57,004 nucleotides of DNA from Candidatus Aenigmatarchaeota archaeon (GCA_015520105.1 WAQT01000010.1:1-57004); one strand, 5' to 3'. Counted from the first letter of the stretch, positions 5,120 to 51,693 are shown. Notes: generated by a model not told the origin, from the letters alone. Translations and numbers: made by a program.

Positions 5120-5423
5120 GCCCCCGTAGCTCAGCTGGATAGAGCACTGGCCTTCTATCCCATATCTCAGGATAGAAGATTCGAGGCCTTCCGGCCGGTG
5201 AGAGGAAAGCCAGGGGTCGTGGGTTCAAAACACAAGAAGGGGAACACATTTCCCCTTCTTAGTGTCGTATCATCCCCTTTAGTACAGGATAACAAGGCAA
5301 GGGTTAACCGATAGTGCAAATGGAGAGGGAACCAAAGTTCCTACTCTTGTATCGTCTATCATGTCACAGGATAACAGGCAACACCATTAACTGGGGATAT
5401 AGAGGGGAATCCCTCCGGGGGCA
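5120..5423 (+). tRNA. tRNA-Arg(UCU) with two introns (about 5158..5207 at 37/38; about 5230..5408 in the T-loop)
   Basis: Acceptor GCCCCCG/CGGGGGC+A. D-arm GCTC-AGCTGGATA-GAGC. Anticodon stem CTGGC/GCCAG with loop CT-TCT-A. T-arm GTGGG-TTCAAA[intron]AT-CCCTC, which implies one U-U mismatch at 50:64. Confidence 0.7.
5250..5333. repeat. Conserved T-loop-intron module (copy in tRNA-Arg)
   Basis: The core 5268..5333 (TATCATCCCCTTTAGTACAGGATAACAAGGCAAGGGTTAACCGATAGTGCAAATGGAGAGGGAACC) matches 26858..26924, differing by one substitution and one 1-nt indel. Confidence 0.85.
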
Positions 5424-5426
5424 CAT

Positions 5427-5707
5427 GGGACCGTGGTGTAGTGGCATCATTGGAGCATGGGGCAGAACCCTTTTACGGGAGGCTGCCGCCTTCCTCAAAA
5501 GCGTTCACGGAAAATGTAAAAGGGTTTTACGGAGCGCTTCAGACCTGGGTTCGATAGAACCCTTTTGGACAGGCAAGCGTCCAAAAGCGTTCACGGAAAG
5601 ACAGCTTCCGCGTAACAACGGGAGCTGACGCTTCCGAACCCTTTTGGACAGGCAAACATCAACGCTTTTGCGTGCCTCCAGAAGGAACGGAAATCCCAGC
5701 GGTCCCA
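5427..5707 (+). tRNA. tRNA-Pro(GGG) with two introns (5463..5534 at 37/38; about 5555..5692 in the T-loop)
   Basis: Acceptor GGGACCG/CGGTCCC+A. D-arm GTGT-AGTGGCA-TCAT. Anticodon stem GGAGC/GCTTC with loop AT-GGG-G. T-arm CTGGG-TTCGA[intron]AT-CCCAG. It starts 3 nt after tRNA-Arg. Confidence 0.7.
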
Positions 5708-8805: not shown

Positions 8806-9040
8806 GCCGGAAGCGTGAGCTCCTGTTGTGTTTACCTGCATGTTTTCCGTACACGCTTTGGCGGAAGCGGGTGCCTGCCTGGTCATAACCAACTACATTG
8901 CGGACCAGGATTGCTTTGTGAGCTCCCGTCTTTGTTTTCAAGGGGTTTGGGTCAACAGCCTTTGGAGCACCTTCTCCTGCTCCCAACAGAAGGTGCATCA
9001 AGAGGGAGCTGACCGCTTCCATCCTGCGGCAGCCTCGAAA
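8806..9040. repeat. Intergenic repeat island 1 (modules shared with tRNA introns and island 2)
   Basis: 8830..8859 resembles 12391..12419. 8968..9033 matches 12446..12510 at roughly 94%. 8994..9020 is the exact reverse complement of 26627..26653 inside tRNA-Glu intron 1. Confidence 0.85.
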
Positions 9041-9094
9041 GGCTGTTAAGAACTAATTAATTATAATGGAATCGGGGGTTTATATAGGATTGTG

Positions 9095-9603: not shown

Positions 9604-10053
9604 CTATGTCTGGAGTGAATTATTGGACACGCTTGTGTTTTTCACAATCCTTTTTACCCTTATTATGAAATCCCTGAAGTCTTTCATCCTTTTCTCCAGA
9701 ACCTCAAAAACAAGCTCGTCATCGATATGATTGTATCTGTGAACCAGAACGTTCCTGAAACCGCGCATTCCCCTGAGTTTTTTCACAAGAGATTCTGGAA
9801 ACACCCCCTTGCTTTCCAGTTCATCCAGCATATCCTTTTCATCCCCCGGTATGCCGAGCCTCAACCCTGAAACTATCATGCTGCAAATGTCCATAACACA
9901 TTCTATGCTTATATGAAGCAATCTTTCGCACGCCCTTTTCTTTTCCTTTGAATCTGCATATTCTTCATAACTCTTCGGTTTTATCTCCTCAAGTTCCCTG
10001 AGATATCCTTCAAGTTCGTCAATCTTTCCAAGGATTCTTTCCCTGTCAATCAT
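9604..10053 (-). CDS. HEPN-domain (DUF86) protein, putative toxin of a HEPN/MNT pair
   Basis: The R(x4)H-type motif RNVLVHRY lies near the C-terminus. The start ATG at 10053 overlaps the upstream MNT stop by 8 nt (ATGATTGA). Confidence 0.7.
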   Translation of the reverse strand: MIDRERILGKIDELEGYLRELEEIKPKSYEEYADSKEKKRACERLLHISIECVMDICSMIVSGLRLGIPGDEKDMLDELESKGVFPESLVKKLRGMRGFRNVLVHRYNHIDDELVFEVLEKRMKDFRDFIIRVKRIVKNTSVSNNSLQT

Positions 10054-10447
10054 TCTCCACGCTCCCCAGATATTCCTCATAATATTTCCGGAAATACTCG
10101 AAATCCTTTGCTGTTCTAAATGCGATCTCATAAAGCATATCCTCATCCCTCAGGAAGATAATCTTTCCTTCTTTCAGGACCCTTGTCCTTATATAAAGGG
10201 GCAGCAACTCGAATATCTGCACATCAAACCTCTCGCCGAGCATGCCGGAATACTCGATTCTCATATCCAGAAGCCTTTTCCTGTTCAATCCCGGTATGGT
10301 AACAAAACACAAATCTATATCCTCTCCCTTCCCTCGAAGCGAACTTCCGAAAAGAATAACTGCTATCACATTCCTGTCCTTCTCGATTTTCCTTCTCACG
10401 TTTTCCGGAATCAAAACATTCTCTGCTTTCATGCAAAGATTTTGCAT
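10046..10447 (-). CDS. Minimal nucleotidyltransferase (MNT), putative antitoxin
   Basis: Motif VILFGSSLRGKGEDIDLCFV (GSx10-ish DxD of the Pol-beta NTase fold). The start may be 10432. Confidence 0.7.
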   Translation of the reverse strand: MQNLCMKAENVLIPENVRRKIEKDRNVIAVILFGSSLRGKGEDIDLCFVTIPGLNRKRLLDMRIEYSGMLGERFDVQIFELLPLYIRTRVLKEGKIIFLRDEDMLYEIAFRTAKDFEYFRKYYEEYLGSVEND

Positions 10448-11943: not shown

Positions 11944-12285
11944 TCAGCACGTGGTGTGGATCACTGCCGCGGCCTTCTTTCCTTCCTTCACAAGCCCGTT
12001 GAATATGTCGCACGCATTCTCGGATACATCCATAAAAAACTTCACCCCCTTTGTTTCCGCAAGCTCCCTTGCATCGTCTGTTATTTTAAGTATTCCGGAT
12101 ATCCCTGTTCCTATCACAACGGAGTCCGGGTTTCTCTCCAGAACGCGGACAAGCTCCTCCACTCCGAAAACGTGAGACTTCGGCCGCATGGAGAGAGAGC
12201 CGTCCCAGAACACTACGAGGTCTGAATAGTAGGTCTTTCCGTCCACTGTTATCTCCCCGAACTTCACGGAATCGATGTGAACCAT
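11944..12285 (-). CDS. Mth938-like domain protein (DUF498)
   Basis: 113 aa with F.G...vDGK.Y..DlvV and a VVIGTG core. A TATA-like AATTTAAGA lies about 24 nt upstream on the minus strand. Confidence 0.55.
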   Translation of the reverse strand: MVHIDSVKFGEITVDGKTYYSDLVVFWDGSLSMRPKSHVFGVEELVRVLERNPDSVVIGTGISGILKITDDARELAETKGVKFFMDVSENACDIFNGLVKEGKKAAAVIHTTC

Positions 12286-12339
12286 GTTTTTATTTCCCGG
12301 TAGGTCTTAAATTGTTGGAGGGTTTTCCTCAGTGCTTAG

Positions 12340-12673
12340 AAGAGGCGGATTCGCGAGTTTCCGCTTCCATGTTGCGGAAGCATCCGTTACGTTTACCTGC
12401 ACGTTTTCCGTACACGCTTGTTTCCGTCAGGAAACTCCCTGCCGGCACCTTCTCCTGTTCCCAACAGAAGGTGCATCAAGAGGGAGCTATCGCTTCCATC
12501 CTGCGACAGCGTCTGTTGCGTTTACTTTGCGTATTTTCCGTACACGCTTGTTTCCGTCAGGAAACTCCCTGCCGTCAGGCAGAGGATTGCGGAAGTGTAA
12601 ACTCCCGTAAAAGGGTGTGCGGTAGCGGTGTTTCCGTGAACGCTTTAGCGCGCTTGCCTGCGCTAAAGGGTTC
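12340..12673. repeat. Intergenic repeat island 2 (internal 40-nt duplication plus modules shared with tRNA introns)
   Basis: 12404..12443 is identical to 12534..12573 (40 nt). 12446..12510 matches 8968..9033. 12631..12673 is an inverted copy of the tRNA-Pro intron unit at 5557..5599. Confidence 0.85.
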
Positions 12674-13978
12674 TTACCAGCACACGCCTTCAAAACCATC
12701 GACTTTCTTGGGGTCCAGCGCCCTCCTGCCCTCTATTATCACACTTCCCCTCATCGCGGAGAAATCATCGTCCGTGAGGTCCCTGAACTCCCTCCATTCG
12801 GTCACGACAAGGCAGGCATCCGCTCCCTTCAGGGCCTCTTTCGCGCTTTCTGCGTAGCCTATCTTCGGGAACGCTTTCCGGAAGTTGAACATTGCCTTCG
12901 GGTCGTAGGCGACCACGCCGGCTCCCTGCCGGATAAGTTCGCTCACTATGCGCAGCGCAGGGGATTCCCTGACGTCGTCTGTCTCGGGCTTGAACGCGAG
13001 TCCGAGGACAGCGATTCTCTTTCCCTTGAGGGAACCGATTCTTTTCTTAAGGAGGTCTATCATCCTGTAGGGCTGCCTTGAGTTCACGTTTATCACCTCC
13101 TTCAGAAGGGAGGCGTTGTAGCCGAGCTTCTCTGCCTTGCTCACGAGGGCGAGGACGTCCTTGGGGAAGCATGAGCCTCCAAACCCTATTCCGGCCCTGA
13201 GGAAGTGGGGAGATATCCTGCTGTCCAGACCGACGCCCTTCATAACTTCATAGGCGTCTATCCCGAGCTTCTTGCAGATGTTCCCTATCTCATTCGCATA
13301 GGTTATTTTCATTGCAAGGAATGAGTTTGAGGCGTACTTTATCATCTCCGCCACCTTTAGGGAAGTTCTCAACACAGGGGCCGCAAATCCCCTGTAGAGA
13401 AAGGCGAGCGTCTCTCCGGAACGCGGGTCAAGCTCTCCTATCACTATCCTGTCCGGGTTGAGGAAATCCTCGAGCGCGCTTCCCTCCCTGAGGAACTCTG
13501 GATTCATGCACACGCCGAAACCGGGACCCGCCTTCTTTCCTGAACCCTCCTCGAGGTTCGGAATCACCACCCTCTCAGTGGTTTCTGGCGGGACAGTGGA
13601 CTTGACCGCAACCACATGGTAATGCTCCTTCAGCCTCAGGGCCTTTCCTATTGCCTTTGAGGAATCCTCTATATACCTTAAATCAGTATCTCCGTTCCTC
13701 CTTGACGGCGTCGGGACGCATATGAAGGTTATCTCCGACTCCGAGACAGCGTAATCGAGATTCGTGGTCGCCTCTATATTTCCCTCTCTTCTCAGTTCCT
13801 TGAGCATTTCCCTCAGTCCAGGCTCGTATATCGGGCTCTCTCCGGAGTTTATCCTTTCCACCTTTTCCTTGTCTATGTCCATGAGTATGGTCTTGAATCC
13901 CTTCTTTGAGAAGCCGACTGCTGTGGTTAACCCGACATATCCTGCGCCTATCAGCGATATCCTTACCTGCTTCCTCAT
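12674..13978 (-). CDS. ugd: UDP-glucose 6-dehydrogenase
   Basis: 434 aa with N-terminal GAGYVGL Rossmann motif, catalytic GFGGSCFPKD, and a C-terminal UDP-binding domain. Confidence 0.8.
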   Translation of the reverse strand: MRKQVRISLIGAGYVGLTTAVGFSKKGFKTILMDIDKEKVERINSGESPIYEPGLREMLKELRREGNIEATTNLDYAVSESEITFICVPTPSRRNGDTDLRYIEDSSKAIGKALRLKEHYHVVAVKSTVPPETTERVVIPNLEEGSGKKAGPGFGVCMNPEFLREGSALEDFLNPDRIVIGELDPRSGETLAFLYRGFAAPVLRTSLKVAEMIKYASNSFLAMKITYANEIGNICKKLGIDAYEVMKGVGLDSRISPHFLRAGIGFGGSCFPKDVLALVSKAEKLGYNASLLKEVINVNSRQPYRMIDLLKKRIGSLKGKRIAVLGLAFKPETDDVRESPALRIVSELIRQGAGVVAYDPKAMFNFRKAFPKIGYAESAKEALKGADACLVVTEWREFRDLTDDDFSAMRGSVIIEGRRALDPKKVDGFEGVCW

Positions 13979-22724: not shown

Positions 22725-23969
22725 CTATTTCAACATATATTTATAGAAAGGAACAATCTCTATTCTCCCCTTATCAAACTCTGCTTTCCCTTCTTTATCA
22801 TAGGTCAGTATAATTCCTTTATCAATCCTGAACTTTTTCATGAAAGTTCTTAACGGCTTGATATCAAGCTTGGAATATTTTATTTCTATTGGTATTATCT
22901 TTCCGTCAGCGTGCTTAACGACATCAACCTCGTTCTTATAAACATCTCTCCAGAAGAAATCTGCATTCAATTGAAGAACCATTGCTGTTTCAAAAACCCT
23001 CCCCCTCAGTCCATGTTTTCTGACAATCTCTGGCAAAACAACCGTCGGATAATACTTCTTAAGCTTTCTCTGGGTTTTTCTGGCACTGCCCGAGAAATTA
23101 TAAAGTTTTTTAATCAGATAGGATTTTTCCAGATAATTAAGATAATTTGATAGTGTCTGCCTTGAGATATTCAGGTCTTTTGCCATATCATCTATGTTTA
23201 TTATCTCTCCAGGGCTGAGGAGAATTATCCTTAAGACCTCCTCCAGTATTGCGGGTTCTCTGACCGGAAATATCTGAGGAATATCTCTGTAAACAATCTT
23301 CTCTATAATATTCTCCTTTATGTATTTTTTTACAACCTCTTCTGTTTCGCTCGCAATTTCAGGAAAGCCGTTGCAAAGCAGAAAGTTATCGAACTCCCTC
23401 AGGATTTCTTGCTTGTACAACTCCACATTTTCAAACCTTCTGCCTTTGAAAGTTAAATACTCTCTGAAACTCAGTGGCTGAATCTTGAATTCAAAAAACC
23501 TCCCTGCAAGGCTTTCCCTTGATTTATTTGATATGAAAAGCGACTCCGAGCCGGAGATGATGAGTTTTATGTTTTTGAAATTGTCATAAACCCTTTTAAT
23601 CTGCTCTTCCCACCCCGCAACCTTTTGTATCTCATCAAACAGCACGAGATATTCGCCTTCGCCAAGCTCCTTGTTAACAAGCCTTGAATAAGCATTAAGA
23701 ACGTCTTTTATTCTGACATCCCTGAAATCATCAAAGGAGAAATACATAATATTTTCGGGACCGAACTTTTCAATATTGTCTCGAACCATCTTCAGCATTA
23801 TTGTTGTTTTTCCCACCCTCCTCAAACCGGTCAAAGCAATGATCTGCCTTGTTTTGAGAAAACGCTTTATCTCTTCGTAAACCTCCCTTGGCCTGAACTC
23901 TATTTCAAAGCCTCTTTTCCACCACTTGTTTGTCTCTTCCAGAGCCTCTATTATTCTCTCACTGTCCAT
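22725..23969 (-). CDS. AAA-type ATPase with a DUF4143-like C-terminal domain
   Basis: Walker A GLRRVGKTT, Walker B-like LVLFDEIQ, and a C-terminal DUF4143-like region. It is a paralog of 30236..31459. Confidence 0.7.
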   Translation of the reverse strand: MDSERIIEALEETNKWWKRGFEIEFRPREVYEEIKRFLKTRQIIALTGLRRVGKTTIMLKMVRDNIEKFGPENIMYFSFDDFRDVRIKDVLNAYSRLVNKELGEGEYLVLFDEIQKVAGWEEQIKRVYDNFKNIKLIISGSESLFISNKSRESLAGRFFEFKIQPLSFREYLTFKGRRFENVELYKQEILREFDNFLLCNGFPEIASETEEVVKKYIKENIIEKIVYRDIPQIFPVREPAILEEVLRIILLSPGEIINIDDMAKDLNISRQTLSNYLNYLEKSYLIKKLYNFSGSARKTQRKLKKYYPTVVLPEIVRKHGLRGRVFETAMVLQLNADFFWRDVYKNEVDVVKHADGKIIPIEIKYSKLDIKPLRTFMKKFRIDKGIILTYDKEGKAEFDKGRIEIVPFYKYMLK

Positions 23970-26452: not shown

Positions 26453-26961
26453 GCTCCCGTCGTCTAGCCCGGTCAAGGATACGAGCCTCTCGAATGAGCT
26501 TTTCTCAAGGAAAAAGCTCAACCAACAGGAGGCTTCCGCCTTCCAAGGGGGTTTTCCTCAAGGAAAAAGCTTTGCGGAACAAGCGTGTCACGACTCAGCT
26601 CCCTAAAATGGTTGGGAAGGTGCAAAGGAAGCGGTCAGCTCCCTCTTGATGCAAGAGGTTAACCTTTTGCGGAAGCGAGCGCGAGCGAAGCTCCTGTAAA
26701 AGGTTAGGGAGCAGGAGAAGGTGCAAAGGAGAAAGCTCGGGACGCGGGTTCAAAGCGCAAGAATGGGGACACATTCGTGCCTCGTCAATGAGGATTGTGG
26801 CACGAGACATCTCTGCAATGGTTATATTGGAGATGCAGATCCCCCTTCTTACCGCACTATCATCCCCTTTAATACAGGATAACAAGGCAAAGGGTTAACC
26901 GATAGTGCAAATGGAGAGGGAACCCAGGTTCCCCTCTGCGGTGGGAGTCCCGCCGGGAGCA
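26453..26961 (+). tRNA. tRNA-Glu(CUC) with two very long introns (26493..26733 at 37/38; about 26755..26947 in the T-loop)
   Basis: Acceptor GCTCCCG/CGGGAGC+A. Anticodon stem CGAGC/GCTCG with loop CT-CTC-G. T-arm GCGGG-TTCAAA[intron]T-CCCGC. Confidence 0.7.
26840..26924. repeat. Conserved T-loop-intron module (copy in tRNA-Glu)
   Basis: Near-identical to 5250..5333 in tRNA-Arg. Confidence 0.85.
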
Positions 26962-28290: not shown

Positions 28291-28388
28291 ATTTATATAT
28301 GTCCTTCATAATTTTTATTGCAGAACGCCTGGCTGCGCGAGAACCCGCCCGAACAGGCAGCGTGTTGAGGGTATATTCTGTGAAACCT

Positions 28389-28400
28389 TATATTTAAATA
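28389..28400 (+). promoter_or_regulatory. Putative TATA box for tRNA-Ile
   Basis: TATATTTAAATA lies about 27 nt upstream of 28422. Confidence 0.45.
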
Positions 28401-28421
28401 AACGCTTCTATCATTTGTTGT

Positions 28422-28629
28422 GGGCCCGTGGCTTAGTGGTTAGAGCGCCCGACTGATACAGGTTTCCCCTCGAACAGCAGCAGGGGCATGCCTGTGGATA
28501 TCGGGAGGTCGTGAGTTCGATACACCGCTTTTTACAGGAGCTTTCGTTTCCTCCAAAAGCGGTGGAGCAAAAACAGGCACAGTTAACCGATAATTCGGTT
28601 AACAGTGAACGAGAATCTCACCGGGCCCA
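28422..28629 (+). tRNA. tRNA-Ile(GAU) with two introns (28459..28499 at 37/38; 28521..28614 in the T-loop)
   Basis: Acceptor GGGCCCG/CGGGCCC+A. D-arm GCTT-AGTGGTTA-GAGC. Anticodon stem CCCGA/TCGGG with loop CT-GAT-A. T-arm GTGAG-TTCGA[intron]AT-CTCAC. Confidence 0.75.
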
Positions 28630-28813
28630 TTCTATCAAGAGGTTGGTTTGCTTAGCGTTTTCAGCATTCCATAAATGTCTGTGAACACAACATTGCAGTT
28701 ATTCAGGATTTGACTTCCTGCTTTTCTTTTATAGAACATAACCTTGAGATTTAGTTAATCGTTTAAATTTTAGTATAACTAAAGTTTAATCATAGTTTAA
28801 TAATAGTAATGAA

Positions 28814-28933
28814 TGGACCGACCGGGATTCGAACCCGGAGCCTCCGCCTGTTTCCGAACCTTGCGCTTCTGTTGAGGGAGTGTTGCCCGAAGGTTCTTGC
28901 GAAAGCGGCGATCTACCATTGATCTATCGGCCC
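28814..28933 (-). tRNA. tRNA-Ala(CGC) with one canonical intron of about 48 nt
   Basis: On the minus strand: acceptor GGGCCGA/TCGGTCC with a G3:U70 pair. Loop TT-CGC-A. T-arm CCGGG-TTCGAAT-CCCGG. No encoded CCA. Confidence 0.8.
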
Positions 28934-30224: not shown

Positions 30225-30235
30225 TACTATTGTTC

Positions 30236-31459
30236 ATGGAGTATTATCCAAGAGAAATAGAGAATAAAATAGAAAAATGGATGCAAAGAAAAGAGGTCGT
30301 GTTACTCAGAGGACCGAGGCAAAGCGGAAAGACAACGTTGTTTTTGCATCTGAAGGAGAAACTGGGCGGAACGTATGTAAGTCTGGAGAACGAAGACACG
30401 CTTAAGGTTTTTGAAGAGAACCCGGAAATGTTTGTCGAAAGGTTTGGCGCGAAGAACCTCTTTATAGATGAGGTGCAATACTCAAAGAAGGCTGGGAAAA
30501 ACATAAAATATATCTATGATTTCTTTCCGGATGTCAGGATGTTTGTCACGGGATCAGGCTCTTTTGATATCAAGGTGCTGGTAAGCAAATATCTTGTAGG
30601 AAGGTCTGCAAGCTTTGAGCTGCTTCCTTTGAATTTTGGTGAGTTTCTGATGTGGAAGGATAAGAGTCTTGCAAAAATCCATACTCAGTACAAGAACGCA
30701 ATATTGGAATTCATAAGAGGAGGAAGGGCAAACATAGAAGCGGTGTTTGAAAGGGAGTTTAGGGCGATGCTTGAGGAGTATTTGATGTTTGGAGGTTTTC
30801 CGGAAATAGTCAAAGAAAAAGACGAAGGCATGAAAACAGAGATTCTGAAAAACCTTTACAGGACATATCTTGAAAGAGATGTGTTCTATTTCCTTAACAT
30901 AAGGCATCTTGAAAAGTTTAGAGGTTTATTGAGATATCTTGCGCTTTCAACAGGAAACATCTTTGAGTTCTCCTCCGTAATGTCTGAGTTGGGGATGGAT
31001 TACAAGACCATAGACAACTACCTGAACATCCTTGTCAATTCTTATGTGATAAAGATTGTGTCTCCGTTCCACAGGAACAGGGTAACGGAGATCAGAAGAA
31101 GCAAGAAGGTGTATTTTGTGGACAGTGGTCTGAGGAATGCGGTTCTTGGGAATTTCTCTCCTCTGGAAGGAAGAACTGACAAAGGGCAGATTCTGGAGAA
31201 TTTTGTCCTGAGGGAATTTGAGGGGTTTGAGATAAAATACTGGAGAACAACAACAAAAGCTGAGGTTGATTTTGTGCTTCTGGAGGGGAAAAGATTGATT
31301 CCGGTTGAGGTAAAATCCCTGAGAAACATCAAAAGGAGCTTTCTTGGTTTTCTTAATATGTACAAGCCGGAAAGGGCTCTTGTTCTTACAGGAGACAGGC
31401 TTGAACACAGAAGGATTGGAAAGACCAATGTCCTGTTTGCTCCTCACTGGATGGTTTAA
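30236..31459 (+). CDS. AAA-type ATPase with a DUF4143-like C-terminal domain
   Basis: Walker A GPRQSGKTT and Walker B LFIDEVQ. The architecture matches 22725..23969. Confidence 0.7.
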   Translation: MEYYPREIENKIEKWMQRKEVVLLRGPRQSGKTTLFLHLKEKLGGTYVSLENEDTLKVFEENPEMFVERFGAKNLFIDEVQYSKKAGKNIKYIYDFFPDVRMFVTGSGSFDIKVLVSKYLVGRSASFELLPLNFGEFLMWKDKSLAKIHTQYKNAILEFIRGGRANIEAVFEREFRAMLEEYLMFGGFPEIVKEKDEGMKTEILKNLYRTYLERDVFYFLNIRHLEKFRGLLRYLALSTGNIFEFSSVMSELGMDYKTIDNYLNILVNSYVIKIVSPFHRNRVTEIRRSKKVYFVDSGLRNAVLGNFSPLEGRTDKGQILENFVLREFEGFEIKYWRTTTKAEVDFVLLEGKRLIPVEVKSLRNIKRSFLGFLNMYKPERALVLTGDRLEHRRIGKTNVLFAPHWMV

Positions 31460-35716: not shown

Positions 35717-35748
35717 GAAATTTTAATAGCGCGCAGATAATCATAAGA

Positions 35749-36711
35749 ATGAGAATTCTGAAGTTTCTTCCTGTTCTGGGGATAGCGCTCTTTATATTCA
35801 TATTGAGAGGTCTTGACTGGAACATTATCCTGGAACTTCTCTCGAGAACCAACCTTTACGTAATAGTTGCGATTCTCCTCCTTCAGGTTCCGATAGTGCT
35901 CACAAAGGCGCTGAAGTGGAAAGCGATTATAAAGGCCTATGGTGTTGAGTTCCCTCTGTCAAGGGCGGTCTCTTCATGGCTCATAGGATTTGCCGCGGGC
36001 ATTGTGACTCCCGGAAGGATGGGAGATTTCGCAAGGGTTTATTACTTGAGAGGGAGGCTTCCGTCAGGAGAGGCGGCAACCACTGTTGCCGTGGACAGGA
36101 TAATAGACATATTCATACTCTTTTCCCTCTCGCTCATAGGCATTGCGCTGTTCTCCGCTGTTTATGCAGCGGGCCGCAGCGCGATTACGATTGTTGCTGC
36201 CATAGGTGCGTTCTTTGCGCTGTTTTCGGCGGGCGTGTACGCGTTCGCAATAAAGGGGGTTGCAGAGAGGCTGGCAAGACCGCTTCTGAGGGCTTTCGTG
36301 CCATCCAGGCACAAGGAAAGAGCAAAGGGCCTCTTTCACGGATTCTACAAGGGCCTCGATATCATAAGAAGCAACAGGAAGAACGTAGCGGAGTCTTTCC
36401 TGCTGTCCCTCGTTTCGTGGTTTCTTATTATAGTGCAGACCTACATGATTTCTGTTGCGATAAACATAGAGGTTCCCTTTGTTTTCGTCGCGTCCATACT
36501 TCCCGTCATAACCATTCTTGACGTTCTTCCTGTATCCTTTTCGGGAATAGGCACAAGGGACGCCGCTCTTATATTCTTCTTCGGGTTTCTCCCGCTTCCT
36601 CCTGAGGCAGCGGTGTCGTTTTCCCTGATGATACTGGTGTTCAACTACCTGGTCGCGGCCGGCGCCGGAATGCTGCTGTGGGCAAAAAACCCTTTCAGGA
36701 TTCATGGCTGA
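35749..36711 (+). CDS. Flippase-like membrane protein (lysyl-PG synthase TM region / UPF0104 family)
   Basis: From the ATG at 35749. Basic residues lie between TM helices, with a GR.GD(F/L)AR(V/A)YY motif (GRMGDFARVYYL). The A/T box AAATTTTAATAG lies about 25 nt upstream. Confidence 0.6.
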   Translation: MRILKFLPVLGIALFIFILRGLDWNIILELLSRTNLYVIVAILLLQVPIVLTKALKWKAIIKAYGVEFPLSRAVSSWLIGFAAGIVTPGRMGDFARVYYLRGRLPSGEAATTVAVDRIIDIFILFSLSLIGIALFSAVYAAGRSAITIVAAIGAFFALFSAGVYAFAIKGVAERLARPLLRAFVPSRHKERAKGLFHGFYKGLDIIRSNRKNVAESFLLSLVSWFLIIVQTYMISVAINIEVPFVFVASILPVITILDVLPVSFSGIGTRDAALIFFFGFLPLPPEAAVSFSLMILVFNYLVAAGAGMLLWAKNPFRIHG

Positions 36712-50835: not shown

Positions 50836-51693
50836 ATGAAAAAGTATCTTAAGCTTTTGCGCATGCAGCAGTGGTACAAGAACGTGGTGGTCTTCATTCC
50901 CCTCTTCTTCTCGCTTAATGCGATGAACCCTTACATGCTGATGCTTTGCGCCGGAGGGTTTGCCGCGCTCTCTCTTATGTCATCATGCTATTACATACTC
51001 AATGACCTGAAGGATGCAGAGGAGGACAGAAGGCACCCGGAGAAGAGGAAGAGGCCTGTGGCGTCCGGAGAGGTGTCAAAGAAGGCAGCATTTGCTGTCG
51101 CCGCGGCGCTGTTCGCTGCATCGATATCGCTTTCCTATGCGCTGAATCCGGCGTTTGCTGTATTTCCTTTGTTGCTTCTGCTTGTGACCATGTTTTATAC
51201 GTTCAGGCTCAGGAATGTAGCGATAGTGGACATACACGCAATATCCGTTAATTTTCTGATAAGAACAGTGTCCGGAGCGGTTCTGATAGGAGTGAGCATC
51301 TCTCCGTGGCTTGTGATAACGATATTCCTCCTGGCTCTTGTGCTGGCCTCTGGAAAGAGAAGGGCCGAGCTTGAGTTTCTTGGAAAGCATGCGGAGAAAC
51401 ACAGGCCTGTTTACAGGGTTTACACGGGACATCTCCTGGATGCGTTTCTCATGGTTTCGGTCTCCCTCCTCCTGATGTCGTACACGCTCTACACATTTAT
51501 AGCGCATCCGGAAGGTTATCTTGTCTTCACTCTTCCTGTTGCGACGTTTCTGCTTTTCAGGTATATGTATTTTGCGGTTTCCGGAGGCAGGGAGGGAAGG
51601 TCTGCGGAGCATGTATTGAGAGACCCGCAGATGGTTGCCGGAATAGCTGTATGGGTTGCAGCAGTGTTTCTTGGCCTGTATGTGATTGCATGA
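50836..51693 (+). CDS. UbiA-family prenyl-phosphate phosphoribosyltransferase (decaprenyl-phosphate 5-phosphoribosyltransferase / DPPR-synthase-like)
   Basis: LRMQQWYKNVVVF, YILNDLKDAEEDRRHPEKRKRPVASG, FLIRTVSGAV and GKRRAEL parallel the motifs I recall from mycobacterial Rv3806c (RPRQWVKN; NDVRDVEADREHPTKRFRPIAAG; GKRYAEL). Confidence 0.7.
   Translation: MKKYLKLLRMQQWYKNVVVFIPLFFSLNAMNPYMLMLCAGGFAALSLMSSCYYILNDLKDAEEDRRHPEKRKRPVASGEVSKKAAFAVAAALFAASISLSYALNPAFAVFPLLLLLVTMFYTFRLRNVAIVDIHAISVNFLIRTVSGAVLIGVSISPWLVITIFLLALVLASGKRRAELEFLGKHAEKHRPVYRVYTGHLLDAFLMVSVSLLLMSYTLYTFIAHPEGYLVFTLPVATFLLFRYMYFAVSGGREGRSAEHVLRDPQMVAGIAVWVAAVFLGLYVIA

Follow-up and report, generated by a model that had tools for sequence, protein, structure and literature searches.

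In bacteria, repetitive extragenic palindromes (REP) and bacterial interspersed mosaic elements (BIME) are short imperfect palindromes, which form mosaic intergenic arrays, are carried in the mRNAs of neighboring genes and vary in copy number between strains; REP elements are present in the hundreds in each genome, linked to RAYT transposases. Archaeal bulge-helix-bulge (BHB) introns are known outside tRNA genes as rRNA introns and as the intron of the crenarchaeal cbf5 mRNA, where they interrupt a functional RNA or a reading frame and carry the splice motif at their borders. For tRNA genes of the Thermoproteales, two reviews summarizing the work of Fujishima et al. (2010) describe similar introns spread among unrelated tRNA genes in canonical as well as non-canonical positions, with a recent and lineage-specific gain and a mechanism still called unknown (PMC4090602, PMC4033280). 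A further case is the model for Caldiarchaeum subterraneum, with tRNA-gene disruption by a mobile 1.8-kb recombinase-coding element leaving tRNA fragments (PMC3293823). Here we describe island 2, a repeat array within a 57,004-nt contig (WAQT01000010.1, 50% G+C; the window) of an uncultured archaeon assigned to Candidatus Aenigmatarchaeota. We consider it likely that island 2 is an orphan copy derived from the composite introns in the tRNA genes of this lineage, situated on the minus strand in the 3' untranslated region (UTR) of a gene encoding a UDP-glucose/GDP-mannose dehydrogenase (UDPGDH), probably functionless and changing by tandem duplication and recombination.

In form, island 2 resembles REP and BIME in that its palindromes lie in mosaic intergenic arrays, would be transcribed with a neighboring gene and vary in copy number, but its family occurs mainly in tRNA introns, few intergenic copies were seen and the window contains no RAYT-type transposase. 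With the rRNA and cbf5 introns it shares splicing-endonuclease-type intron sequence in a non-tRNA transcript; unlike these, it interrupts nothing and shows no splice motif above chance. Paralogous spread and recent gain recall the Thermoproteales introns. However, the window derives from another lineage, its introns are composite nested arrays of up to 241 nt and such arrays also occur in the UTRs of protein genes, which the reviews consulted do not mention (PMC4090602, PMC4033280); both arrays of this type, island 2 and a second one termed island 1, lie in spacers between protein-coding genes. As in Caldiarchaeum subterraneum (PMC3293823), the population is heterogeneous at intron-bearing tRNA loci and tRNA fragments and intron material appear to be scattered by recombination, whereas island 2 has neither a recombinase nor an exon fragment.

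A preliminary description had placed island 2 at 12340-12673 and regarded it as built almost entirely from intron-family modules. The module-bearing core is 12358-12673 and the meaningful reading strand is the minus strand; matches to intron DNA, together with an array translated in the public protein P0003, cover about 88% of this core, in agreement with the proposed composition. From the 5' end of the minus strand onwards, the following elements were distinguished.

12358..12673, minus strand: core of island 2, 316 nt, an exon-less intron-like array starting with GAACCC right after the UDPGDH stop codon and ending with ...GCGGAAA.
12631..12673, minus strand: P unit, 43 nt, a 13-bp hairpin GAAC-C-CUUUAGCGC with the loop AGGCAAGC, followed by ACGGAAA.
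12590..12616, minus strand: the 15-mer ACCCTTTTACGGGAG, identical to 5467-5481 in the anticodon-loop intron of tRNA-Pro, with the overlapping hairpin CGGGAGU-UUAC-ACUUCCG.
12569..12582, minus strand: small hairpin CUGCC-UGAC-GGCAG.
12534..12574, minus strand: second copy of a perfect 41-mer, in which the Q hairpin GUUUCC-UGAC-GGAAAC stands together with the K core AAGCGTGTACGGAAAA.
12491..12533, minus strand: K-b tail, the linker in the 130-nt unit.
12445..12497, minus strand: H module, consisting of GGAAGCG..AGCTCCCTCTTGATGCA and the 9-bp hairpin GCACCUUCU/AGAAGGUGC; common to island 1 and a tRNA-Glu intron.
12404..12444, minus strand: first copy of the 41-mer (Q hairpin plus K core).
12357..12403, minus strand: K-a tail with the hairpin GCUUCC-GCAACAU-GGAAGC and, at its end, CGGAAA (12358-12363), where the array would have its 3' terminus.

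The minus-strand order is thus P unit, 15-mer, two small hairpins, a 130-nt unit (K core, K tail, H hairpin module, Q hairpin) and a second K core with its tail. The core directly abuts the TAA stop codon of UDPGDH, and module homology stops at about 12362 on the other side. An exact duplication of 40 nt had been reported for 12404-12443 and 12534-12573; the identity extends by one base to 41 nt (12404-12444 and 12534-12574), and the 41-mer belongs to an imperfect tandem duplication (roughly 12362-12577) whose period is about 130 nt. The window holds 1.7 copies of the 130-nt unit. This period was not reported by Tandem Repeats Finder. The array differs from a CRISPR array in that the 41-mer occurs only twice and the intervening sequence is itself a repeat module. 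The hairpin module between the two copies had been described as a copy of the island 1 module with three small differences, which is correct for 12446-12510 (two substitutions and one indel); over the longer stretch 12445-12513 versus 8967-9036 of island 1, four substitutions and a one-base indel were counted in 70 columns. The two islands are, as noted before, in direct orientation, with a copy spacing of 3478-3561 bp. Likewise, the open reading frames (ORFs) over island 2 belong to no family and their sole database relatives are translations of the same repeats; a search of the representative protein library with the 70-aa minus-strand ORF returned only the unrelated tandem-repeat proteins P0006 and P0007.

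The homology of island 2 to tRNA introns carries our interpretation. The core is collinear with real introns when it is read on the minus strand, on which both flanking genes are also encoded. Positions 12619-12675 match the first bases of the tRNA-Ser(CGA) T-loop intron on scaffold L012 of the same population with 98% identity over 57 nt, 12631-12674 match the T-loop intron of tRNA-Pro with 86% over 44 nt, and 12619-12689 match 5541-5611 in tRNA-Pro with 77% over 71 nt. The P unit, which is the usual intron 5' end in the module family, was recovered in island 2 with 73.8 bits (E 1.9e-17) by the covariance model R1, made from four P units. Adjacent to it, 12602-12616 are identical with the tRNA-Pro anticodon-loop intron (15/15), and further along 12445-12462 and 12472-12488 match the tRNA-Glu intron (17/17), in which the H module is interrupted by a 53-nt insertion and 27 of 27 bases equal island 1. 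The inverted tRNA-Pro intron pieces seen previously at the right end were found again as the 12-mer CCCGTAAAAGGG (12604), with its reverse complement at 5468, and the 16-mer TTTCCGTGAACGCTTT (12631), with its reverse complement at 5498 and 5584. Six exact copies of AAGCGTKYACGGAAA are found in the window, each of them in one of the islands or in the tRNA-Pro introns; when up to two mismatches are allowed, the matches number eight versus 0.32 expected. The spurious protein P0003 from another public contig translates an array collinear with 12397-12617, and the residues ..FEPA.. directly after this array read as an antisense tRNA T-arm. Altogether, island 2 is homologous to bona fide introns of its own genome and has their orientation and their order of modules. 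Identity to the intron paralogs comes in patches, as short stretches of 94-100% within a diverged context.

The edges of the array are also of intron type. Its start, with the boundary between A and GAACCC, resembles those of the tRNA-Pro, tRNA-Ser and tRNA-Ala introns and of the introns at L022, a locus of a different organism, and its end ..GCGGAAA resembles the ends of the T-loop intron of tRNA-Pro (..ACGGAAA before T) and of the intron of tRNA-Ala (..TCGGAAA before C). At its 5' edge, flush with the stop codon, the array is no more than one or two bases away from the 5' splice site of the family. Island 2 therefore has the appearance of an entire intron of this family that lacks a surrounding tRNA. 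These edges argue against a sloppy tRNA-gene duplication and suggest an intron-end-specific process, for which an excised-intron (RNA) intermediate would be a candidate route of insertion. It is possible, though rather unlikely, that island 2 is a full-length BHB intron which moved as a discrete unit and landed after the stop codon by such a route. Excised or circular intron RNA would then have been copied to DNA, or the intron would have been reverse-spliced into the mRNA with subsequent recombination. If true, this would be the first direct footprint of an archaeal "intron transposition" mechanism.

The introns to which island 2 is compared reside in four tRNA genes that were read from the window sequence, three of them obscured by very long introns.

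5120..5423, plus strand: tRNA-Arg(UCU), whose anticodon-loop intron measures 50 nt (5158-5207) and whose T-loop intron, about 175 nt long, contains the T module 5252-5341.
5427..5707, plus strand: tRNA-Pro, interrupted in the anticodon loop by one intron and in the T-loop by another of 138 nt (5556-5693).
26453..26961, plus strand: tRNA-Glu(CUC), 509 bp, with an anticodon-loop intron of 241 nt (26493-26733) and a T-loop intron of 193 nt (26755-26947).
28814..28933, minus strand: tRNA-Ala(CGC) with a 50-nt intron, which starts with GAACC and ends with ..GGTTCGGAAA.

ARAGORN detected no tRNA in the unspliced window and Rfam one, tRNA-Glu(CUC) being missed by both; after splicing in silico, the Glu, Arg and Pro products were recognized by ARAGORN. 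A scan for BHB motifs found five of the window introns and missed, at this stringency, the anticodon-loop intron of tRNA-Pro and the T-loop intron of tRNA-Arg. The intron arrays of the lineage range from 50 to 241 nt and are composed from a shared set of hairpin modules. Within tRNA-Pro there are two clear P-type units (5465-5513 and 5557-5599), a marginal third match (5641-5693) and an 80-nt internal duplication. The T-loop introns of tRNA-Pro and tRNA-Ser are 85% identical over 100 nt, P units are present in anticodon-loop and T-loop introns alike, and the first intron of tRNA-Glu contains pieces of the H module, at 26627-26653 (27/27 with island 1) and at 26707-26724. Similar introns thus occur across tRNA isoacceptors and positions, as transposed paralogs would.

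Several further features of these tRNA genes were recorded. The genes for tRNA-Arg(UCU) and tRNA-Pro are separated by 3 nt and both have an anticodon-loop and a T-loop intron; the anticodon of tRNA-Pro is GGG or TGG, depending on the anticodon-loop splice junction, and the T-stem of tRNA-Arg has a U-U mismatch. The T module (about 65-90 nt, ..TCATCCCCTTTARTACAGGATAACA..GGTTAACCGATAGTGCAAA..; 5252-5341, 26842-26932 and L012 9654-9718) is common to the T-loop introns of tRNA-Arg, tRNA-Glu and tRNA-Ser at 94-97% identity and does not occur in the islands. At 26485-26571 on the plus strand, a duplication with a 53-nt period (GCCTCTCGAATGAGCTTTTCTCAAGGAAAAAGCT / GCCTTCCAAGGGGGTTTTCCTCAAGGAAAAAGCT) begins at the exon-intron junction of the tRNA-Glu anticodon-loop intron, its first copy taking in the final 8 nt of the exon. 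At L022 (1390-1870, JGI Ga0190359_1007085), one tRNA carries P units in its anticodon-loop intron as well as in its T-loop intron, and upstream of that tRNA there is an orphan P-like unit with a duplicate of the first approximately 15 nt of the tRNA. Intron-family material outside tRNA genes is therefore not confined to the species of the window.

Island 2 itself is surrounded by protein-coding genes.

12674..13978, minus strand: UDPGDH, identified by Pfam, with island 2 in its 3' UTR.
11944..12285, minus strand: DUF498 (Mth938-like) gene, identified by Pfam, downstream of island 2.
12286..12357, minus strand: remainder of the spacer without module homology, containing the TATA-like TTTAAG (12306-12311, minus sense) before the DUF498 start at 12285.

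Taking the TTTAAG box as the putative DUF498 promoter, the flanks of the array are a UDPGDH stop codon and the promoter and start of DUF498 instead of exons. Neither ARAGORN nor Rfam detected a tRNA in or around island 2, and no Rfam family was found in it at gathering or permissive thresholds. BHB-like matches amount to nine in island 2 compared with 5.3 +/- 2.3 in shuffled sequences, and there is no match that frames the island in a meaningful way. One BHB-like match, from 12691 to 12278, would amount to splicing of the entire island; it has four G-U pairs as its central helix and would give an out-of-frame product, and was taken as chance. Neither island is probably spliced, judging from the sequence, because the exon half of the BHB motif is missing. 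One may ask whether island 2 is the wreck of an intron-bearing tRNA gene that once stood between UDPGDH and DUF498 and lost its exons. Partial duplications of tRNA genes do occur, as shown by the tRNA 5' fragment beside the orphan modules of L022, and in the scaffold L011 island 2 runs into the 5' part of tRNA-Ser. However, an exon remnant remains on neither side, the conserved stop codon is followed at once by intron-type sequence, which leaves no room for a 5' exon, no tRNA is found at the site in the sister genome L003, and the join in L011 is most simply chimeric, with an intact tRNA-Ser(CGA) in L012. We hold this origin to be very improbable.

The distribution of the modules was followed over about 80 kb of this genome. 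Among the 16 non-coding gaps of more than about 150 nt in the window, modules are common only to the two tRNA clusters and the two islands, and in the 20 kb of L012 they occur in tRNA-Ser only. On account of this confinement, we regard the family as mainly intronic and the islands as rare escapes. The non-coding gaps 50898-51650 (753 nt), 28291-28813 (523 nt) and 35717-36063 (347 nt) contain no module copies and give no Rfam match. The H-module pattern GGAAGCG-N(2-4)-AGCTCCCTCTTGATGCA had no match in the genome collection and none in the JGI metagenomes, the organism being absent from both sets.

Since the copies are dispersed, hairpin-rich and lineage-specific and lie in introns as well as spacers, they might be non-autonomous DNA transposons, either miniature inverted-repeat transposable elements or hairpin-ended derivatives of IS200/IS605, which insert anywhere, survive only in harmless sites (tRNA introns and spacers) and piled up in island 2; the hairpin near the end of the P unit is indeed reminiscent of IS200/IS605 ends. 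Yet terminal inverted repeats are lacking (best end-to-end score of 6 for island 2 versus 5.4 +/- 1.1 in shuffles), and there is no target duplication at island 2, whose flanks CTGGTAA and CTCGCGA are unrelated. The seven insertion points have no common target sequence, and the copies are mosaics of 15-70-nt patches instead of unit-length elements. Modules occupy two of about 12 long non-tRNA spacers of the window and none of the non-tRNA sites in the 20 kb of L012. Transposases were not seen within the approximately 80 kb; for the window, Pfam showed no transposase, integrase or reverse transcriptase among the scanned ORFs, which comprise nearly all ORFs of at least 100 aa. A viral origin was rejected, too: two of three module patterns had no match in viral contigs and the third gave seven single short matches, not beyond chance and without extended homology. 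A transposon nature of the modules is accordingly improbable in our view.

In the window, Pfam assigned housekeeping and glycosylation genes throughout; two paralogous AAA_14/DUF4143 ATPases are located less than 8 kb apart (22725-23969 on the minus and 30230-31459 on the plus strand). Comparison with relatives bears on the age of the islands. The closest public relatives, judged by Taw1, are three metagenome-assembled genomes with 66-77% identity (L003-L005), while Nitrososphaera, Brockarchaeota and Thaumarchaeota reach at best only about 50%. The order ScpA, pilin-like, Taw1, Trm56, DUF498, UDPGDH is kept in L003, where the spacer between DUF498 and UDPGDH measures 39 bp versus 388 bp in the window, and no modules were detected in 55 kb of the three sister genomes. 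The tRNA-Glu of L003 has introns of 24 nt (D-loop), 12 nt and 16 nt; the D-loop intron is not present in the window, and the anticodon-loop and T-loop introns are at the same positions as the 241- and 193-nt introns of the window. The repeat family hence represents a recent expansion, as indicated by the 39-bp spacer and the short tRNA-Glu introns of L003, and the gain is lineage-specific. The shared intron positions moreover imply that the modules were nested into older short introns in the lineage of the window.

Island 1 has a comparable setting upstream of scpA.

8807..9036, minus strand: island 1 modules, with H at 8967-9036, the K core at 8843-8858 and the K tail at 8807-8842.

It lies between a promoter-like box of scpA, ATTATAATTAA (about 9056-9068), which is conserved with L003 and located approximately 290 nt upstream of the start codon, and the Shine-Dalgarno sequence and start codon of scpA, which would place it in the 5' UTR of the scpA operon. 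By this position, the scpA-scpB-lysS operon would be preceded by a structured 5' leader approximately 270 nt long.

In the preliminary description, the two islands were noted to bracket several genes (pilin-like, HEPN/MNT, taw1, trm56 and DUF498). This bracketing has no meaning in the sense of a cassette; the region from ScpA to UDPGDH is collinear in the island-less L003. A pair of genes encoding a HEPN (HepT-like) protein and an MNT nucleotidyltransferase (9604-10447, minus strand) is absent from the otherwise collinear site in L003 and was therefore inserted separately and recently, with the pilin-like gene on one side and taw1 on the other.

Allele comparison was based on public assemblies, not on reads, and revealed deletion or recombination variants of island 2. 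Three alleles were distinguished: the form of the window, which is also found in L001, and those of L011 and L002. In L011, the island is identical except for one single nucleotide polymorphism (SNP) and a 39-nt deletion (12540-12578), by which most of the second 41-mer is lost. L002 bears an additional 130-nt unit with two SNPs and, owing to these SNPs, this unit is not a simple assembler loop. Island 2 consequently behaves as a minisatellite with a head-to-tail unit of about 130 nt whose copy number differs among assemblies.

In ENA, NCBI and Logan assemblies of this population, the contigs L001, L002, L010, L014, L023 and L024 break off at or within modules. The break sites are position 8858, the interior of island 2, the tRNA-Ser intron and, beside the 27-nt tRNA-Glu repeat, about 26659; the modules are systematic assembly breakpoints. 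Since repeats of this kind break assemblies, the duplication or the island might be an assembly artefact; as direct repeats 3.5 kb apart, the islands might alternatively be the attL and attR sites of an integrated element carrying the intervening genes. Island 2 with its flanks is, however, present in three independent public assemblies from different samples (L001, L002 and L011), which disposes of an artefact, and the intervening genes are collinear in L003 and of housekeeping type (Taw1, Trm56), so that both explanations are extremely improbable. The join between island 2 and the 5' part of tRNA-Ser in L011 was considered as proof of a rearrangement and downgraded, as it passes through about 50 shared nt (within the 57-nt, 98% match). 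With these nucleotides common to both loci and an intact tRNA-Ser elsewhere, the scaffold is probably chimeric; it may also be a real recombinant.

Folding of the islands is far more stable than that of shuffled sequences, with z = -7.0 (minus strand) and -7.7 (plus strand) for island 2 and z = -3.65 (minus strand) for island 1. Folding energy was uninformative for a strand call, with -163.8 kcal/mol for the minus versus -165.5 kcal/mol for the plus strand of island 2. The P hairpin exists in three fully compensated stem versions with the same loop and flanks.

P stem TTTTGGAC/GTCCAAAA: tRNA-Pro.
P stem TTTAGCGC/GCGCTAAA: tRNA-Ser and island 2.
P stem TTTGGCAC/GTGCCAAA: L022, the other organism from a JGI metagenome.

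A fourth copy, located in the tRNA-Ser intron, is a mispaired hybrid whose 5' arm is Pro-type and whose 3' arm is Ser-type. The compensated stems suggest either selection on the hairpin or a palindrome-correcting recombination, two processes which four sequences cannot separate. These observations bear on the idea that the islands are functional structured RNAs, namely cis-acting UTR elements or small, perhaps circular RNAs cut out by the splicing endonuclease. Very stable minus-strand folds, compensatory P stems with a conserved loop in two organisms, the sense orientation of both islands inside putative UTRs and several G-U pairs which are valid only in minus-sense RNA, read from the sequence of the K hairpin and the hairpin 12590-12607, are in its favor. 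On the other hand, the islands are missing at the same sites of the sister genomes, their copy number and content differ within one population, the plus strand folds equally well, no Rfam family was assigned and the splice motif is not above chance; compensated stems may also originate from palindrome-correcting template switching in DNA. A functional RNA is, on balance, unlikely. C/D-box small RNAs or replication-origin boxes, considered for the H and Q modules, were rejected by eye because the spacing and orientation of the boxes do not fit and the would-be guide region is a perfect hairpin, and because an AT-rich unwinding region is missing and the same modules occur inside tRNA introns.

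Some points nevertheless weigh against the interpretation of island 2 as a probably functionless orphan intron copy. The splice scan was loose and the motifs of the real introns are relaxed, and there may be a functional site inside island 2. Compensated P stems with an invariant loop, as well as the position of both islands in intron sense relative to host transcription, could mean selection on RNA. The support from P0003 comes from a protein translation, and the intergenic copy number is sampled from only about 80 kb of the genome.

Taken as a whole, an orphan intron copy remains the likely explanation, with the following course. Short pre-existing tRNA introns have been inflated by nested hairpin modules, and short-patch recombination (gene conversion) with intron paralogs would account for the patchy identity. 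Island 2 would be carried along as the hairpin-rich tail of the UDPGDH mRNA. As far as can be deduced from sequence data, the islands are most likely without a function of their own, and island 2 would represent neutral or selfish repeat DNA, its practical effects being a structured UTR RNA, substrates for recombination and assembly breakpoints.

How tRNA introns spread between archaeal genes has been a long-standing question since the description of the Thermoproteales introns, the mechanism still being called unknown in review (PMC4090602). The locus unites a before-and-after comparison with a sister genome, an escaped intron-type array with intact ends and live population variation, features which are rarely found together, and if the exon-less copy arose by intron-end-specific insertion, the possible mechanisms would be narrowed. 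Moreover, tRNA counts and contiguity of such lineages are systematically underestimated, because giant introns hide three of the four tRNA genes of the window from standard tRNA finders and break metagenome assemblies. Island 2 is thus of interest as a natural experiment on archaeal intron mobility and as a rare footprint of the spread of tRNA introns.

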